Shown here piece by piece: positions 57,872 to 64,000 of a DNA stretch of 64,000 bases. The stretch covers positions 1 to 64,000 of IMG/VR virus record IMGVR_UViG_3300043432_000083. One strand, 5' to 3'. The DNA is from a virus (taxonomy: Duplodnaviria; Caudoviricetes). The stretch's first letter is position 1. Every line of letters starts with the position of its first letter. The notes beneath the pieces were generated by a model, which saw nothing but the letters and a program-made list of their open reading frames with translations, was not told the origin of the DNA and did not search any database. Position numbers and translations under genes: made by a program.

Positions 57872-59509
57872 CTATTTCTTGAACATCCGACCCATGCGGG
57901 CCGCTCCAGCATCCTGCTTGGCCTGTCCTTGCGGCGTGATACCCGCCGCCATGTCCTTCAGGTCCGGATTGGCGTCATAGATCGCCTTCAGCGCCACGCT
58001 GAACACCTTCTCATTCTTGTCCTTCATGTACTGTTTGGCCTGCTTGGTCGCTTCGGCCTTCGCCTCAGACGGTCGCAGCAGCTCAAGAGTCCCAGGCTGG
58101 CCCGCCGTCTCGGTCGCCTCGCCGCTGGACAGCTCCTTGAACAGGAAGGTCCCAGGCTTGCGCGACTCGAACAGCGACTTCAGGGCGTCCAGGTTGGACA
58201 GCTCCTTGCCGTTCTGCGAATAGGCTTTGACCTGCCCACCGGAGAGTGTGTCATACAAATGCTCGACGATGGGCCGCTCAACCGGGAGGATCTTCAGATT
58301 GGACTCACTGGTCAGGGAGCTGAACCACGACTCCTTCTCGGTGACGCGGTTCCGCTCGGCCAGCTCCGCCTTTTCCTTCTCCAGCTCGACCACGCGCTGC
58401 TGGGCGGAGGTTTCCTTCTGGCTCAGCTCAGTGACCCTGGTGGAATGCTCCTGAATGGTGTCCGACAGTTCTTGATTCTTGTTCGTGAGTTCCGCGATCT
58501 GGGCCTGCAATGCCTCGACCGTCGGAGTCTGTCCGTCAGCCATTGCGTGTGCTCCTTCCGTCGGGGCAGATGCGCCCACTGGGGTTGTGTCCGGGCCTAA
58601 TTCGCCATCGGACTGCATGTTGTTTTTCGCTTTGCTGATCTGTATGGCTTTCTCCTGTGCTTGCGCCTCTGCTTCCGAACTATGGGTACCCAAGACCTTA
58701 CCGGTAGACTCAGAGATCAGCACCCACTTGTCTCCTTGCTGCTCAATAATGTATCGCCTTTCTGCCTGTTGTCCAAATATCTGAAAGGCTTCGTCTGGTT
58801 CATAGAGATCGCAGACCTGTCCCGAGGCACATTCCCCTTCCACCAAAGAGCAGCAGGCAATATATTGATTTGTGCCCTTGGGATCGGAAGGCCCACAAAA
58901 GAATTCACAATTGCCGCAGCAATCCATCAACCCATCATCATTTGCATCCTCGCCGCCTGCTCGATAATGAACTACGGCTTTGTCCTTCTTGTTAACAGTA
59001 ACTGGAAGCGACCATTGCGCGGTGGATGGGGCAGACCCGTCCATCATGCCCATGTCATACCGCTTGAACGGACGCTGCTCGCCATCGTACAGCGTCTCCA
59101 ATGCCGCGAGGCTGGTCACAGCCGGGATGTCCGCGCCAAGCAGTGAGAGCGCCTTGACAACCCGTGGCCATGTCTTGCCATTGCAACTGTAGTCCCAATA
59201 TATCTCTGCCGACACCCTATTGTATGCGCGCCGTTTGATCGCTTGGTACACCTGCTTCGGCAGATCGGTCAGGTCGCAGTAGAGCTTGTCCCCGATGCGC
59301 CGGAGGTTCCTCACCCAGCCGATGGCAGGCATCCCGTCCGACTGGGCCAAGGGCTGTGAGGCATCGTGCCCCAGCTTCATCGGCGGATCGAATCCGACCT
59401 GTCCGAAGGCAGCGACCATATGGTCCAGATCCTGCTCGGAATAAACATCACGATTCCACGTGCCAACGCTGAAGATGGGCACCTGTTTTAGCTCAAAGGT
59501 TTCACTCAC
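57872..59509 (-). CDS. Mu-type prohead protease/scaffold with a Cys-rich insertion
   Basis: IFSVGTW..KLGH..PAIGWV..VSAEIY..SLLGADIPAV; C-terminal coiled coil. Confidence 0.88.
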   Translation of the reverse strand: MSETFELKQVPIFSVGTWNRDVYSEQDLDHMVAAFGQVGFDPPMKLGHDASQPLAQSDGMPAIGWVRNLRRIGDKLYCDLTDLPKQVYQAIKRRAYNRVSAEIYWDYSCNGKTWPRVVKALSLLGADIPAVTSLAALETLYDGEQRPFKRYDMGMMDGSAPSTAQWSLPVTVNKKDKAVVHYRAGGEDANDDGLMDCCGNCEFFCGPSDPKGTNQYIACCSLVEGECASGQVCDLYEPDEAFQIFGQQAERRYIIEQQGDKWVLISESTGKVLGTHSSEAEAQAQEKAIQISKAKNNMQSDGELGPDTTPVGASAPTEGAHAMADGQTPTVEALQAQIAELTNKNQELSDTIQEHSTRVTELSQKETSAQQRVVELEKEKAELAERNRVTEKESWFSSLTSESNLKILPVERPIVEHLYDTLSGGQVKAYSQNGKELSNLDALKSLFESRKPGTFLFKELSSGEATETAGQPGTLELLRPSEAKAEATKQAKQYMKDKNEKVFSVALKAIYDANPDLKDMAAGITPQGQAKQDAGAARMGRMFKK

Positions 59510-60016: not shown

Positions 60017-60283
60017 TTAACATCCCTCCTTCTCGCCCAACTCGTCTGGAGTGATCTTGCCATACTCTAACACTGGTTTGTCGAATGCCTGCGTGATGTA
60101 CAGCAGATCGTCCTTGAGCTCCTCTAAACTGTCTGCGCACAGCGGGATCGGCTCCTCGGTATAGCTACAAATGCTACCATCGTCATCGTCATAATAAACT
60201 TCATGGATGCCGTAGTGCTCGATCTCATCTGGGCTGATCTCGCTCCGCAGATAGCGATGAAGAATGCGATAGTTCCACGTCAT
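60017..60283 (-). CDS. Conserved hypothetical phage protein
   Basis: MTWNYRI..YGIHEVYYD..EEL..AFDKPVL. Confidence 0.75.
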   Translation of the reverse strand: MTWNYRILHRYLRSEISPDEIEHYGIHEVYYDDDDGSICSYTEEPIPLCADSLEELKDDLLYITQAFDKPVLEYGKITPDELGEKEGC

Positions 60284-61158
60284 ACCGCACCATGTGCAGC
60301 GATATGGACGTTGCAAGGCGCTTGGCTGGTTCGATCCCAGCAATTCGAGCAGACTGGATAGCCCTGTACCATAGCATAATCCTCCTGAAGTTCTATGTGT
60401 CGATAACAACGCGAACAGCCCGGCATGATGACAGAGTCTTGCAATCCTTTTGGCTCTACCACCGCCAGCAATTCCTTCGGCAAGACCATCCGCGCCACGT
60501 CCCCGAACTGCTCAATCAAGAACGCGGCTTCTCGGAGACGTTTGGCTTGGTGTCGAGAAACATCATAATAGGCATCCTCCGCCCCGAACCGGCTCCGATC
60601 TGCCTGTTGTCCTGGCTGCACCCCGTCCTGCGCCCACGGTGCTTTCGTATGTCGGACAATCACGGCATCTGTTTTTGCGCAGCGCCATCCCTTCGCCCGC
60701 GCTTGCAAACTGAGGTATAGATCGTCCAAGGTCTGCACCCTCACATCAGGCTCAATCCCACTTTCCCGATCTATCACCATGCAGAACCCGCAGCAGTAGG
60801 CCAGCTCCAGCGTGGAGTCTATCAACATCGCTTCTGGAATCTTCTCGTCATGCTTAATCGCCTCTGCTGGATTCAGCAAGGCAATGTTCGGAAGGGCTGA
60901 CATGCGACAGATCAGATTAACCAGCCAGCCGTCATGCAGCACCTCTGCATCATCTTCAATAAGGCACAGATAACGGGCTTGTGACCGGCGGAACAGGCGA
61001 ATGCGCTTCTCGACTTTCGTCAGTTGCTCCCCCTTTTCGATATACACATCGGCCAGCATCCCCGCTGAGATGGTTTCGAGGGACTTGAGTAGTCGAGCGA
61101 GCCAGGGATTGCTCTCGGAGTCCCGCACGCTGATCCCGATGTCCACGAGGTTCGGCAC
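60280..61158 (-). CDS. Glycosyltransferase family 2-like
   Basis: YLCLIEDDAEV..GWL..GFCMVI..DDLYLSLQARAKGW..VRH. Confidence 0.7.
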   Translation of the reverse strand: MPNLVDIGISVRDSESNPWLARLLKSLETISAGMLADVYIEKGEQLTKVEKRIRLFRRSQARYLCLIEDDAEVLHDGWLVNLICRMSALPNIALLNPAEAIKHDEKIPEAMLIDSTLELAYCCGFCMVIDRESGIEPDVRVQTLDDLYLSLQARAKGWRCAKTDAVIVRHTKAPWAQDGVQPGQQADRSRFGAEDAYYDVSRHQAKRLREAAFLIEQFGDVARMVLPKELLAVVEPKGLQDSVIMPGCSRCYRHIELQEDYAMVQGYPVCSNCWDRTSQAPCNVHIAAHGAV

Positions 61159-61319
61159 TAGTCTGATTCCTTATCTAGTGCCAGCACTGTGTCCCCTTCC
61201 TCATCGTCATCCTCATCCTCCAGTCCGATACTGGCATCCACCTCTTGGTCGAAGCTCGCTTGTGCCAACAGGTCCCGCGTCTCCTCCATCTGATCTAATT
61301 CCACCAATAACTCCATCAT
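61158..61319 (-). CDS. Highly acidic 53-aa protein (absent from ORF track)
   Basis: MMELLVELDQMEETRDLLAQASFDQEVDASIGLEDEDDDEEGDTVLALDKESD; SD GGGAGGGG; 21 D/E versus 2 K/R. Confidence 0.65.
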   Translation of the reverse strand: MMELLVELDQMEETRDLLAQASFDQEVDASIGLEDEDDDEEGDTVLALDKESD

Positions 61320-61326
61320 CCCCTCC

Positions 61327-64000
61327 CTATGCCGCCTTCAACACAGTGATGCCGAACTTGTGCTCTATCGGCGCCCAGACTATCGGATTGATGTAAGCGC
61401 TCTTCGCCACCGACGGCGTGTTCCGCAGTGTGCTGGACACTTGCTTCGCGACATTGGCGACCAGTTTCTTCGCCTCGGTCTTGGTCGTCGGTGGAGGGGC
61501 AGACTTCAAGGCTCGTTGCGCCACGCTGGTCCCGATCAGTGTGCGTAGGTCCTTCGCAGAGCATTTGCCATATCCCTTGAGATAGCCATTGACCTGTCCT
61601 GCCGAAACCGAAAAGACTTTGTCGGAACCCGACTTACCTACCAAGCGGGATCCGATGGCTGAAGCCAATGTTGGATCGGTGATCGTTCCTTGCCATGCCA
61701 TCCCTTTCTTGCCGATGAAGTCGAATTTCACAATGTCTCCAGTGACTGTTAAGTGTCGAGCTTCCAAGGTTGTGGCGCCATACGCTTTGACATTGGCCTG
61801 GGTGTCGGCATCTGAGCCGACGCGCATCGCGGTCGCCAATATCAAGCCGGTGACCACCGCCTCCTCTTTGCCTTTGGCCAGGTCTTGCTCGACGCCCCGC
61901 ACCAGCTTCGGATAGACCTTGCTCAGCTCCGCCACCCGCTGGAACTTCGCCGCCGCCCGCTCTCCGGTCGCCTTGGTGCTGTAGAGATACTGCTGACGAC
62001 CTTTGCTGTCAATGCCAGTGGCTTGCAAAGCACTATTCGGATTATCGCTCACTTCCACACCAGTCCATTGCGGTGGAATATGCAGTGCTTTAATCCGATC
62101 CAAGGCGTCTCTATCAGTGATAACCTGCCCGTCCCCGCCCACGAAGGCGCGTCCGCCGACCTGATACTCATCGCTGACAGCAGCTCCGGCTCCCTCAACG
62201 GCGGTCCACTTGCCTGACTCGTCACGTGCCTGATCCGGGTTGAAGTCGTAGTCCCGCGAGGCGTGATCGCCGCAGAAGCCGCGTCCAGACAGCTCGATGC
62301 CCTTGGCTACTTCAGACGGCGTGATGTACTGCACAGGCCCCTCGTCGCGGGTGATGGGCGTCCATAGGCTTCGGCAGTTGTAATGGCGCGGTGGGCTGAG
62401 TCGATCTTCTTCTGGACTCCCTGGCCGCATGATCTTCTGATCCAGATAGTGACAGACCTCGGTGGTCCTGGCATCCAAGATCGCGCTGTACTGCATTCCG
62501 ATAATGAAGCCCGACTCGACCTCCGGCGCAAACATCGCCTTCCGGCCCTCGTTGAGCGCCTCGATGGTGTTGGTCCGCACCATTGTCTCCAGCCGGTACG
62601 GGGTCAGCAGCTTCTCGTCGATGGCCTGATCCGGGTCTCCCAGCCAGGGCAGGAACACATCGGACAGGGCCTGCTGCACGTCCCGCAGCGGGAGACCCTG
62701 CTTGATCGCGTCGTACAGCACAGCTTTGGCGTCGGACAGGATCGGGTCGCGGAGCTGGGCACCCCACAGGGACGCTTTGGACTCGAAGAACTCCAACGCC
62801 TTCTCCGGCGGCAGGCCCTCCAGGGTATGGCGGACTTGATAGTCCTTCGCCTTCTGCCGCTTCAGCTCAGCTTGGGCATCCTTGCCACCCATGCGGAATG
62901 CCGCCCCCAGCACCTCCCGCAGCGTCGGCACCAACTGACCCAAGCCCCGCAGCTCCAGGTCATTGACCAGTTTGGTCGTCAGCTCCTTGCCGTTCAGCTT
63001 GCGGGTGATGAGGGCGATCAGCTTGTCCCGGCCCTGTGCCAAGATCGCACGGATACGCTGCTTGGACTGGGCCTCCAGCGCGTCCAGGTTGGTCCGAATA
63101 GCAACGAAGTCTACTTTGCGCTCATATTGGGTCAGGTCGCGGGGCAGGTCGGGAATGTCGGCGTAGTCGTGCTCATCACTTTCAGTATTGCTTCCTCCGC
63201 CATCCATCCACTTGCCACTGTCATCCCTAGCTTGGTTGGGGTCGAAGTCGTACTGCTTTTTTACTTTCAAGCCTTTTGCAGATACAAGAACTTCCTTATC
63301 CCCGCCTGCATTCAGATTTCCACTACTATATGCAGACAACAGAATATTTTTGATGGGGACCTTCATTGCAACGACTATTCCTTTTTTGCCGGCATATTGT
63401 TTCGCTATTCGCAAACTTGATGTCCAAGATTCTACCGGATATCGAGTTTGCAGCACTTGCTTCACATCTTCAACCTTTCCAATTCCTCGATATAATACAA
63501 TAGATTGTATTTTACCTCCTTCAGACATTCGCCATTGAGTATAAGCTATTCTCTTTATTGCATGGTCGGCTAATTTATCAAAATAGCGTTTACCCAATTG
63601 AGTCTTTCCCATAGTCCCTAGCAATGGAGAGCTGGCCCCGCGAGGCGTTCCTATATGTCCACCAACTAATTTCTCAAATTCATGATATGTCTTATCCTGT
63701 GTTAATTCATTAAATAATTGATCCCTCCTATCCGAGGAATACCGACCAAAACTTTTATACGCAGCTTCTATTCTATCTGAATTGATAAGGAGTAGGTGAG
63801 AATCTTGCCAGTTCTTGCCTACACCTTTCTCTTCGCTGCCTACACCACTACCACCACCCTCGGTCCACTTCCCATCCTCATCCCTGGCCTGGTCCGGATC
63901 GAAGTCGTACTGCTTGCCAGTCAACCGCTTCTTCAGCTCGGCCTTGACCTGCTCGGCGTCCCAGTCGGGATGCTCAACCACGATGGCCTGCGCCAACTTG
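61327..64000 (-). CDS. MuF head morphogenesis polyprotein (5'-truncated): ART-like domain, MuF domain, DNA topoisomerase IB domain
   Basis: ART: VLYRG/ESWTSS/KEVLV; MuF: RLETMVRTN..YSAILDARTTEVC..PPRHYNCRS; TopoIB: IPPQW, GIDSKGRQQYLY, MRVG, FIGKKG, AKDLRT, LRNTPSVAKSAYI; frame open to the window edge. Confidence 0.9.
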   Translation of the reverse strand, partial: KLAQAIVVEHPDWDAEQVKAELKKRLTGKQYDFDPDQARDEDGKWTEGGGSGVGSEEKGVGKNWQDSHLLLINSDRIEAAYKSFGRYSSDRRDQLFNELTQDKTYHEFEKLVGGHIGTPRGASSPLLGTMGKTQLGKRYFDKLADHAIKRIAYTQWRMSEGGKIQSIVLYRGIGKVEDVKQVLQTRYPVESWTSSLRIAKQYAGKKGIVVAMKVPIKNILLSAYSSGNLNAGGDKEVLVSAKGLKVKKQYDFDPNQARDDSGKWMDGGGSNTESDEHDYADIPDLPRDLTQYERKVDFVAIRTNLDALEAQSKQRIRAILAQGRDKLIALITRKLNGKELTTKLVNDLELRGLGQLVPTLREVLGAAFRMGGKDAQAELKRQKAKDYQVRHTLEGLPPEKALEFFESKASLWGAQLRDPILSDAKAVLYDAIKQGLPLRDVQQALSDVFLPWLGDPDQAIDEKLLTPYRLETMVRTNTIEALNEGRKAMFAPEVESGFIIGMQYSAILDARTTEVCHYLDQKIMRPGSPEEDRLSPPRHYNCRSLWTPITRDEGPVQYITPSEVAKGIELSGRGFCGDHASRDYDFNPDQARDESGKWTAVEGAGAAVSDEYQVGGRAFVGGDGQVITDRDALDRIKALHIPPQWTGVEVSDNPNSALQATGIDSKGRQQYLYSTKATGERAAAKFQRVAELSKVYPKLVRGVEQDLAKGKEEAVVTGLILATAMRVGSDADTQANVKAYGATTLEARHLTVTGDIVKFDFIGKKGMAWQGTITDPTLASAIGSRLVGKSGSDKVFSVSAGQVNGYLKGYGKCSAKDLRTLIGTSVAQRALKSAPPPTTKTEAKKLVANVAKQVSSTLRNTPSVAKSAYINPIVWAPIEHKFGITVLKAA
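62203..63915 (-). repeat. Three dispersed YDFxPxQARDxxGKW repeats (62203-62253, 63205-63258, 63862-63915)
   Basis: YDFDPDQARDEDGKWT / YDFDPNQARDDSGKWM / YDFNPDQARDESGKWT; similar at DNA level. Confidence 0.9.

Follow-up and report, generated by a model that had tools for sequence, protein, structure and literature searches.

A phage MuF head protein with tagged ADP-ribosyltransferase-like and type IB topoisomerase modules and an acidic partner predicted to plug the topoisomerase

Introduction

Effectors packaged in the phage head decide the first minutes of an infection; apart from T4 Alt, the N4 virion RNA polymerase, and the P1 Dar proteins, few of them have, to our knowledge, been investigated. 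In studied phages the MuF (SPP1 gp7-like) domain sits in the capsid with the portal. Among type IB topoisomerases, vaccinia TopIB is carried in the core of the virion and stimulates early transcription. Here we describe a gene that appears to bring these themes together. It lies on the minus strand at positions 61,327 to 64,000 of a 64,000-nucleotide stretch of DNA (the window) from the tailed phage (Caudoviricetes) record IMGVR_UViG_3300043432_000083, and its product, P0002, joins a MuF domain to a type IB topoisomerase (TopoIB) and to a domain with a predicted ADP-ribosyltransferase (ART) fold. We propose, with a probability of about 0.6, that this polyvalent MuF head protein loads the ART-fold domain and the complete TopoIB into the capsid behind a short repeated tag, and that the topoisomerase has a dedicated acidic plug encoded by the next gene.

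Effectors fused to MuF or portal proteins and ARTs packaged in heads are established concepts (PMC5512222, PMC9503650, PMC5576092). Polyvalent proteins combine several effector domains with one head-packaging domain (MuF or portal) in a single polypeptide encoded among head genes; ART is their commonest enzymatic passenger, and its delivery with the DNA has been predicted (PMC5512222; PMC9503650). T4 Alt, an ART of the R-S-E clade, travels inside the capsid and targets the host as infection begins (PMC5512222). MuF toxins, with ARTs among their payloads, have been reported only in temperate phages and prophages, and 89% of them are followed by a short open reading frame (ORF), a putative immunity gene (PMC5576092). 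P0002 resembles the polyvalent proteins of Iyer et al. (2017, 2022) in its several effectors, its fusion to a head domain, and its head-gene context. Type IB topoisomerase is not among the passengers in PMC5512222 or PMC9503650, where the word occurs in a reference title only, and a term search of both papers found neither a conserved tag ahead of every module nor a gene for a dedicated acidic partner. We found no paper on a phage virion topoisomerase IB or on one linked to a portal or MuF protein, within an incomplete coverage of the literature.

Results

One complete frame holds MuF with a module on either side

The window comprises bases 1-64000 of a 97,760-bp virus record, and genome and window share one numbering. 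The record is rated complete and has exact terminal repeats of 127 bp. The minus-strand frame stays open from 61327 up to the end of the window (64000), and the full record adds the first 46 codons, beginning with an ATG at 64137, to give a complete protein of 936 amino acids (aa) (61327-64137). The original prediction had placed ART motifs, MuF, and TopoIB in one frame and had suggested extending the window for the N-terminus; the extended frame is intact and bears this out. In the assembled sequence no stop separates the domains, and Logan contigs (two assemblies) carry 61100-64000 in one piece with zero differences or gaps. They were made with another assembler from two DNA runs of a freshwater metagenome, which is probably the source sample, so they are not independent of the record. 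Both runs are kept as contigs, the comparison of the frame is therefore at contig level, and there was no RNA run among the runs holding the stretch. Because contigs from another assembler are identical over 61100-64000, the frame is not an artefact of one assembly. The fusion is supported independently by the closest relative, P0004 (1277 aa, from an 82-kb metagenome contig; L084 9014-12874, plus strand), which has 67% identity over the topoisomerase and likewise keeps the order MuF-tag-topoisomerase in a single frame. The features of the locus are collected in Table 1.

Table 1. Positions of the polyvalent MuF protein, its parts, and two neighbouring genes in the window.
Feature	Residues	Coordinates	Strand	Remarks
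Polyvalent MuF head protein	936 aa	61327..64000 in window (full 61327-64137)	-	ORF and identical Logan contigs
N-terminal segment	aa 1-76	63910..64000 (on to 64137)	-	first 20 residues, MPLASDRTWLKTYGGLPWWR, conserved in closest relative P0004
Tag 1, before ART-like domain	aa 77-91	63865..63909	-	YDFDPDQARDEDGKW
ART-fold domain (predicted)	aa 95-295	63253..63855	-	core aa 211-300: R217, T239-S240-S241, D280-K281-E282
Tag 2, before MuF region	aa 296-310	63208..63252	-	YDFDPNQARDDSGKW
MuF (SPP1 gp7 / Mu gpF) region	aa 311-629	62251..63207	-	Pfam Phage_Mu_F aa 472-590 (62368-62724)
Tag 3, before topoisomerase	aa 630-644	62206..62250	-	YDFNPDQARDESGKW
Type IB topoisomerase	aa 650-936	61330..62190	-	N-terminal domain 62008-62145, catalytic core 61399-61974
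Acidic partner gene	53 aa	61158..61319	-	21 D+E, 2 K+R; GGAGGGG just before ATG
Head maturation protease (aa 1-145, PHROG) and coiled-coil scaffold-like region	545 aa	57872..59509	-	

The MuF domain had been called correctly: its Phage_Mu_F match scores 42.7 bits against a Pfam cut-off of 29.6, and the MuF part also matches PHROG head morphogenesis families (E 5e-14). In minus-strand order, a Mu-type portal gene (Portal_Mu) is followed by an 80-aa ORF, the MuF gene, the acidic partner, a 292-aa ORF, and the protease-scaffold gene, with the major capsid gene farther on. The MuF gene thus occupies the place after the portal gene in the head module that is characteristic of MuF / SPP1 gp7 proteins, and with an ART-like domain, MuF, and TopoIB in one ORF within that module the product has the make-up of a polyvalent protein. 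Effector modules flank MuF on both sides, as had been predicted, with the ART-like one N-terminal and TopoIB C-terminal.

The topoisomerase retains the catalytic pentad

Both Pfam models of a bacterial-type TopoIB match well above their cut-offs, Top1B_N_bact at aa 665-710 (53 bits; cut-off 27) and Topoisom_I at aa 722-913 (87.7 bits; cut-off 23.7; 91.5 bits in the whole-genome search). The best relative of solved structure is the Deinococcus radiodurans TopIB (2f4q, E 1e-29), followed by 6z01, which we take to be the Caldiarchaeum subterraneum enzyme, and by poxvirus enzymes; identity to the solved bacterial enzyme is ∼30%. Residues R137, K174, R239, N280, and Y289 of 2f4q align with R772 (MRVG), K810 (GKKG), R865 (KDLRT), N906 (LRNT), and Y915 (SAYI), the five positions on which a catalytically complete enzyme had been predicted. 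Aligned with 29 fused homologues (30 sequences in all), four of the catalytic positions never vary, and at least 90% of the sequences retain N906. The domain is apparently active, judging from its sequence. It was also considered as a phage integrase or telomere resolvase; this was set aside on its match to topoisomerase models, the full pentad, and the bacterial TopIB N-domain. The vaccinia/variola (2h7f) and D. radiodurans (2f4q) enzymes are of the same two-domain type, with ∼290 residues and an R-K-R-N-Y pentad; unlike them, the TopoIB described here forms one polypeptide with a phage head protein, in which a tag precedes it, and has an acidic partner. It is the sole topoisomerase match in the complete genome, in which families IA, IIA, and IB were searched.

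An acidic partner is predicted to cover the active site

The ATG of the partner gene lies 7 nt past the TopoIB stop, and the partner's stop overlaps the GTG with which the following gene begins, an arrangement of translational coupling. A homologous 53-residue ORF is found at the same place in P0004. We then counted acidic ORFs in 80 IMG/VR loci, 77 of them evaluable, taking ORFs of 30-110 residues that start at the TopoIB stop. An ORF with a net charge of −8 or lower is present in 47 of the 77, compared with 3.2% of all small ORFs in these loci, and 40 of the acidic ORFs have an LGFD motif.

Prediction of a complex between the TopoIB domain and the partner gave a score of 0.92 (runs 0.93, 0.88, and 0.92), and the best control scored 0.02. 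Of 80 solved complexes, 58 attained this mark, as did 2 of 110 mismatched pairs; since our own alignments were used, this calibration is only rough. The runs share at least 89% of their contacts, and the partner has a predicted local distance difference test score (pLDDT) of at least 77. In the model the partner occupies the DNA-binding and active-site cleft, with an interface that includes all five catalytic positions (domain residues 123, 161, 216, 257, and 266). The prediction that the adjacent acidic protein plugs the topoisomerase makes it probable that the enzyme is carried in the capsid. T7 Ocr, the DNA-mimic inhibitor, is likewise small and very acidic, and the predicted seat of the partner in a DNA-binding cleft adds to the likeness. 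Unlike Ocr, to which it has no sequence relation, the partner would target the phage's own enzyme, whereas the target of Ocr is a host restriction enzyme.

A MuF protein with a C-terminal enzymatic extension and a small ORF behind it also has the defining layout of MuF toxins (PMC5576092), which the TopoIB and its coupled 53-aa ORF share with the systems of Jamet et al. (2017). TopoIB, and the ART with it, could accordingly be payloads directed against competitors or superinfecting phages while the acidic ORF protects the producer, which suits a partner predicted to block the active site. In contrast to MuF toxins, MuF is central here with cargo on both sides. Several features speak against such a polymorphic toxin with its immunity gene. 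The payload is a topoisomerase, which is not among the listed MuF toxin domains (PMC5576092). Relaxation of DNA by TopoIB is, moreover, not obviously lethal. The restriction of reported MuF toxins to temperate phages and prophages contrasts with the complete genome studied here, in which we found no match to Phage_integrase (tyrosine integrase), Resolvase (serine recombinase), or rve transposase models; because these were not found, the phage is probably virulent. We consider the toxin explanation distinctly unlikely and prefer loading of the topoisomerase into the capsid.

A 15-residue tag precedes every module

Each of the three modules of P0002 stands behind a copy of a 15-residue tag with the pattern YDF[DN]P[DN]QARDxxGKW. 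A six-frame scan of the 97.8-kb genome gave 4 occurrences only, 3 in the MuF gene and 1 in the adjacent portal gene, where the tag (portal aa 1151-1165) joins on a C-terminal domain without family or fold match. The four coding stretches vary at synonymous sites, and the Ala codon, for example, is GCC, GCT, GCA, or GCG. Because the synonymous codons differ, it is the peptide and not the DNA that is conserved; the same differences rule out a recent duplication of the tags. Across phages the consensus is mostly [FW]-x-E-x-x-H-P-R-x3-G-[KR]-[FW], followed by a Gly/Ser-rich stretch, and the pattern found here is a rarer Q-A-R...W variant. About half of the long homologues have the tag immediately before TopoIB, and one 1560-residue protein has it ahead of each of five modules. 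In other phages, TopoIB ORFs that stand alone also have it close to their N-terminus, and several of these lie next to a portal gene. Since it is retained on free-standing topoisomerase proteins, the tag is probably not a pure inter-domain linker, and we favour, from its distribution, a loading or docking signal that is perhaps also a processing site. A wider version of this idea is that the tag is a general portable head-loading signal of tailed phages, akin to the cargo peptides of encapsulins or the capsid-targeting sequence of T4, for any enzyme, fused or free-standing, and that TopoIB, held inactive until ejection by a co-evolving DNA-mimic plug, is among its commonest cargos; we put this forward as a tentative possibility.

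Tags that were protease sites could also mean that the fusion serves only co-expression or dosing. The prohead protease gene lies ∼1.8 kb downstream, and after cleavage of the modules the topoisomerase, the only match among the three families searched, would act outside the capsid late in the producing cell, in replication, concatemer processing, or recombination. Without packaging, repeated independent fusion to the inward-facing portal end and to MuF is hard to explain, and a late-gene placement is poor for a replication enzyme. Such a role in the producing cell seems to us very improbable, and a tag that brings modules into the head accounts better for the fusions.

The N-terminal module has a predicted ART fold

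The region between the first and second tags has no match in Pfam, PHROGs, or PDB sequences. It contains the motifs Y216-R217-G218, S237-W-T-S-S241, and K281-E282-V283, and a BLASTP comparison with a canonical ART lined these up at an E of 1.5, which is not significant. A search of 1.8 billion representative proteins identified 11 relatives, several of them in giant multi-domain proteins and one on a portal. Y216-R217-G218, W238, and E282 are invariant in this family, and the residue after the Trp is always Thr or Ser. We compared the family profile by hhalign with canonical YRG/STS/ExE domains, which were cut from phage polyvalent proteins bearing Pfam ADPrib_exo_Tox, and obtained a match of 93.4% probability (E 2.6e-7) that spans 84 columns and aligns all three motifs.

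An AlphaFold2 (AF2) model from a shallow alignment has a mean pLDDT of 62.5, about 80 in the core, and the strand order of an R-S-E ART: the Arg ends strand 1, T-S-S is on strand 2, and the Glu begins strand 5. In fold searches of the PDB with Foldseek and an independent aligner, nearly all top matches had the ART fold, including TreX, KptA, CNFy domain 4, diphtheria and pertussis toxins, PARPs, C3, and Scabin. These structural matches by themselves are suggestive rather than decisive. Among the 7 BFVD matches at E ≤1e-3 is a 1390-residue 'phage head morphogenesis domain-containing protein' (E 2.9e-5), with named ARTs lower. A language-model (Atlas) search gave DUF4765, DRAT, ADPrib_exo_Tox, and Mod_ADP_RT as the nearest named clusters, which we treat as leads only. 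From the profile and the predicted structure we conclude that the region probably has an ART fold of the R-S-E clade and belongs to a sparse, unnamed family.

The original prediction of an R-S-E ART-like domain thus stands as a domain call, on the motifs and the hhalign match. The sequence reads D-K-E where the family consensus has E-x-E, which makes ART activity less certain than the plain label R-S-E implies; two positions ahead of the Glu, relatives have E, E, Q, or R, and this protein has D. The domain could be an ART fold that has lost catalysis or been put to another use, such as binding or NAD sensing, whatever holds for the other modules. This fits D-K-E in place of [EQ]-x-E, the lack of a match to any ART Pfam model, and a relative that reads R-G-E at that place. 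The family nevertheless keeps the Arg and the Ser/Thr invariant, as well as the second Glu, the residue that matters most for catalysis in R-S-E ARTs, and the Asp of D-K-E retains a carboxylate, so that we regard loss of activity as rather doubtful and an ART as the likelier cargo. The domain differs from T4 Alt in its membership of a sparse unnamed family, in having D-K-E instead of E-x-E, and in its presumed loading by fusion to MuF.

Two large relatives carry the family in several copies, P0052 (7059 aa, metagenomic) with about nine to eleven in tandem and P0057 (2249 aa) with several together with a Pfam DRAT match. In P0004 an unrelated segment of ∼170 residues between the first tag and MuF replaces the ART-like domain, and the N-terminal cargo slot is therefore swappable. 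Just upstream of the ART module of P0002, before tag 1, aa 47-76 give a sub-threshold match to Rv0078B-related antitoxins (16.9 bits; cut-off 27.1) and to phrog_35457, which is probably due to chance.

Tagged topoisomerases recur at portals of uncultured phages

We next looked at how often this arrangement occurs. The 49 long homologues join TopoIB of this clade to portal families, MuF, ART, PARP, NUDIX, or 2H domains; the portal fusions involve three families and MuF occurs in four cases. The 80 IMG/VR loci include 24 portal fusions and 16 more with a portal within 4 kb on the same strand. The other 40 were left unclassified, and as the phmmer classification of neighbours is insensitive, these loci without a detected portal or MuF may still have one. 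On this sequence evidence, the tag-topoisomerase-partner cassette is common in uncultured phages, and the MuF-borne form that also includes an ART is one of its rarer variants. A tblastn search of the cultured phages in INPHARED found no fused form; it gave six weak records (25-28% identity) from jumbo and Bacteroides phages, annotated as stand-alone topoisomerase genes or as a hypothetical protein. The original prediction had named the modules correctly, and did not include the tag before each of them and on the portal, the coupled acidic partner, or the commonness of the cassette in uncultured phages.

That fusions of this clade mostly involve the C-terminus of a portal or else MuF, the partner of the portal, would also be expected of a topoisomerase that acts inside the particle. 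Tethered at the portal, it could release twist during packing by the terminase or during ejection and would then not be a host-directed effector, a role that agrees as well with its being the only topoisomerase match among the three families searched. Its companions in polyvalent proteins (ART, NUDIX, 2H, and PARP) are, by contrast, typical host-directed effectors, stand-alone tagged copies are not tethered to a portal, and a partner predicted to cover the active site suits an enzyme that is kept off DNA during assembly. We think an in-particle role unlikely and keep to a topoisomerase that is carried in the head as cargo.

Neighbouring genes of the head module

The portal gene (genome 64383-68276, minus strand; L003 8383-12276) encodes a Mu-type portal of 1297 aa with two inteins. 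The first, at about aa 126-460, includes an HNH endonuclease, and the second, a Hint-type insertion, begins at about aa 569. In P0004 it is the MuF domain that is split by an intein, with a DUF559-type endonuclease. The portal C-terminal domain that follows the tag copy (about 130-138 aa) has a Cys...His...Asp pattern (GQCQDN, FHAWN, IVDTT) that may recall transglutaminases or papain. For this domain we found no Pfam or PHROG match and no homologue of similar length, and a single-sequence AF2 model had a pLDDT of 34. The gap between the portal and MuF genes is filled by an ORF of 80 codons (genome 64137-64379, minus strand; L003 8137-8379) that is coupled to both neighbours: it starts 3 nt past the portal stop, and its stop overlaps the MuF ATG (TGATG). 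Judged by position, this ORF could serve the portal's C-terminal cargo domain as a partner, in the way that the acidic ORF serves the topoisomerase.

On the other side, the acidic partner and the protease-scaffold gene are separated by the 292-aa ORF (60280-61158, minus strand), which contains an EDD motif, ends in a Cys-rich C-terminal stretch (CxxC...CxxC), and has no significant family match (one weak PHROG match, E 0.008). A 265-aa ORF has the equivalent place in the closest relative (L084 13041-13838); the two are likened by size and position alone. The protease-scaffold protein has, besides its long coiled-coil tail, a Cys-rich insert (CCGNCEFFCG...CC...C...C), and the protease (57872-59509) is a candidate enzyme that may process head cargo.

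Discussion

Our favoured model for this protein is as follows. In the producing cell, and perhaps also in the DNA-filled head, the acidic partner would act in a DNA-mimic-like manner and keep the topoisomerase off DNA. MuF and the tags would bring the cargo into the prohead, where the prohead protease may part the modules, and the cargo would leave with the DNA at infection. The ART might then modify a host protein, while the topoisomerase could relax supercoils on the entering phage genome or on the host chromosome to the benefit of early transcription or replication, in the manner of the encapsidated poxvirus enzyme. That enzyme is the nearest functional analogy. Packaging, cleavage, ejection, activities, and targets are what we infer; carriage in the virion and injection fit the head-module setting and the recurrent fusion to portal and MuF proteins.

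Several observations weigh against this model. For the ART module, the ADPrib_exo_Tox hidden Markov model gave no match in the genome at E up to 10, so that the domain is not filed in that Pfam family, and an Asp (D-K-E) takes the first Glu/Gln position of the ExE motif. Its best ART-fold scores (Z 7.7 with a root mean square deviation of 3.4 over 92 aligned residues; Foldseek E 1.6e-3) are middling and were obtained with the model of pLDDT 62.5. The partner found here is of a rarer type, an amphipathic helix with an acidic tail, and lacks the LGFD motif of the commonest type; the score of its complex with TopoIB is a model confidence and not a measurement. Finally, what a topoisomerase would do on a linear entering genome is not obvious.

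The system is unusually full in this phage, whose MuF protein has three tagged modules and whose portal adds a fourth. A capsid-borne TopoIB, if true, would be a new class of injected phage enzyme and the counterpart of the encapsidated poxvirus topoisomerase, and its matched acidic partner suggests a built-in safety catch. If the tag is a loading signal, it would explain how phages swap cargo modules and could be used to load chosen proteins into capsids. Should it prove to be portable in general, poxvirus-like virion topoisomerases would be widespread in bacteriophages, where they have so far been undescribed.

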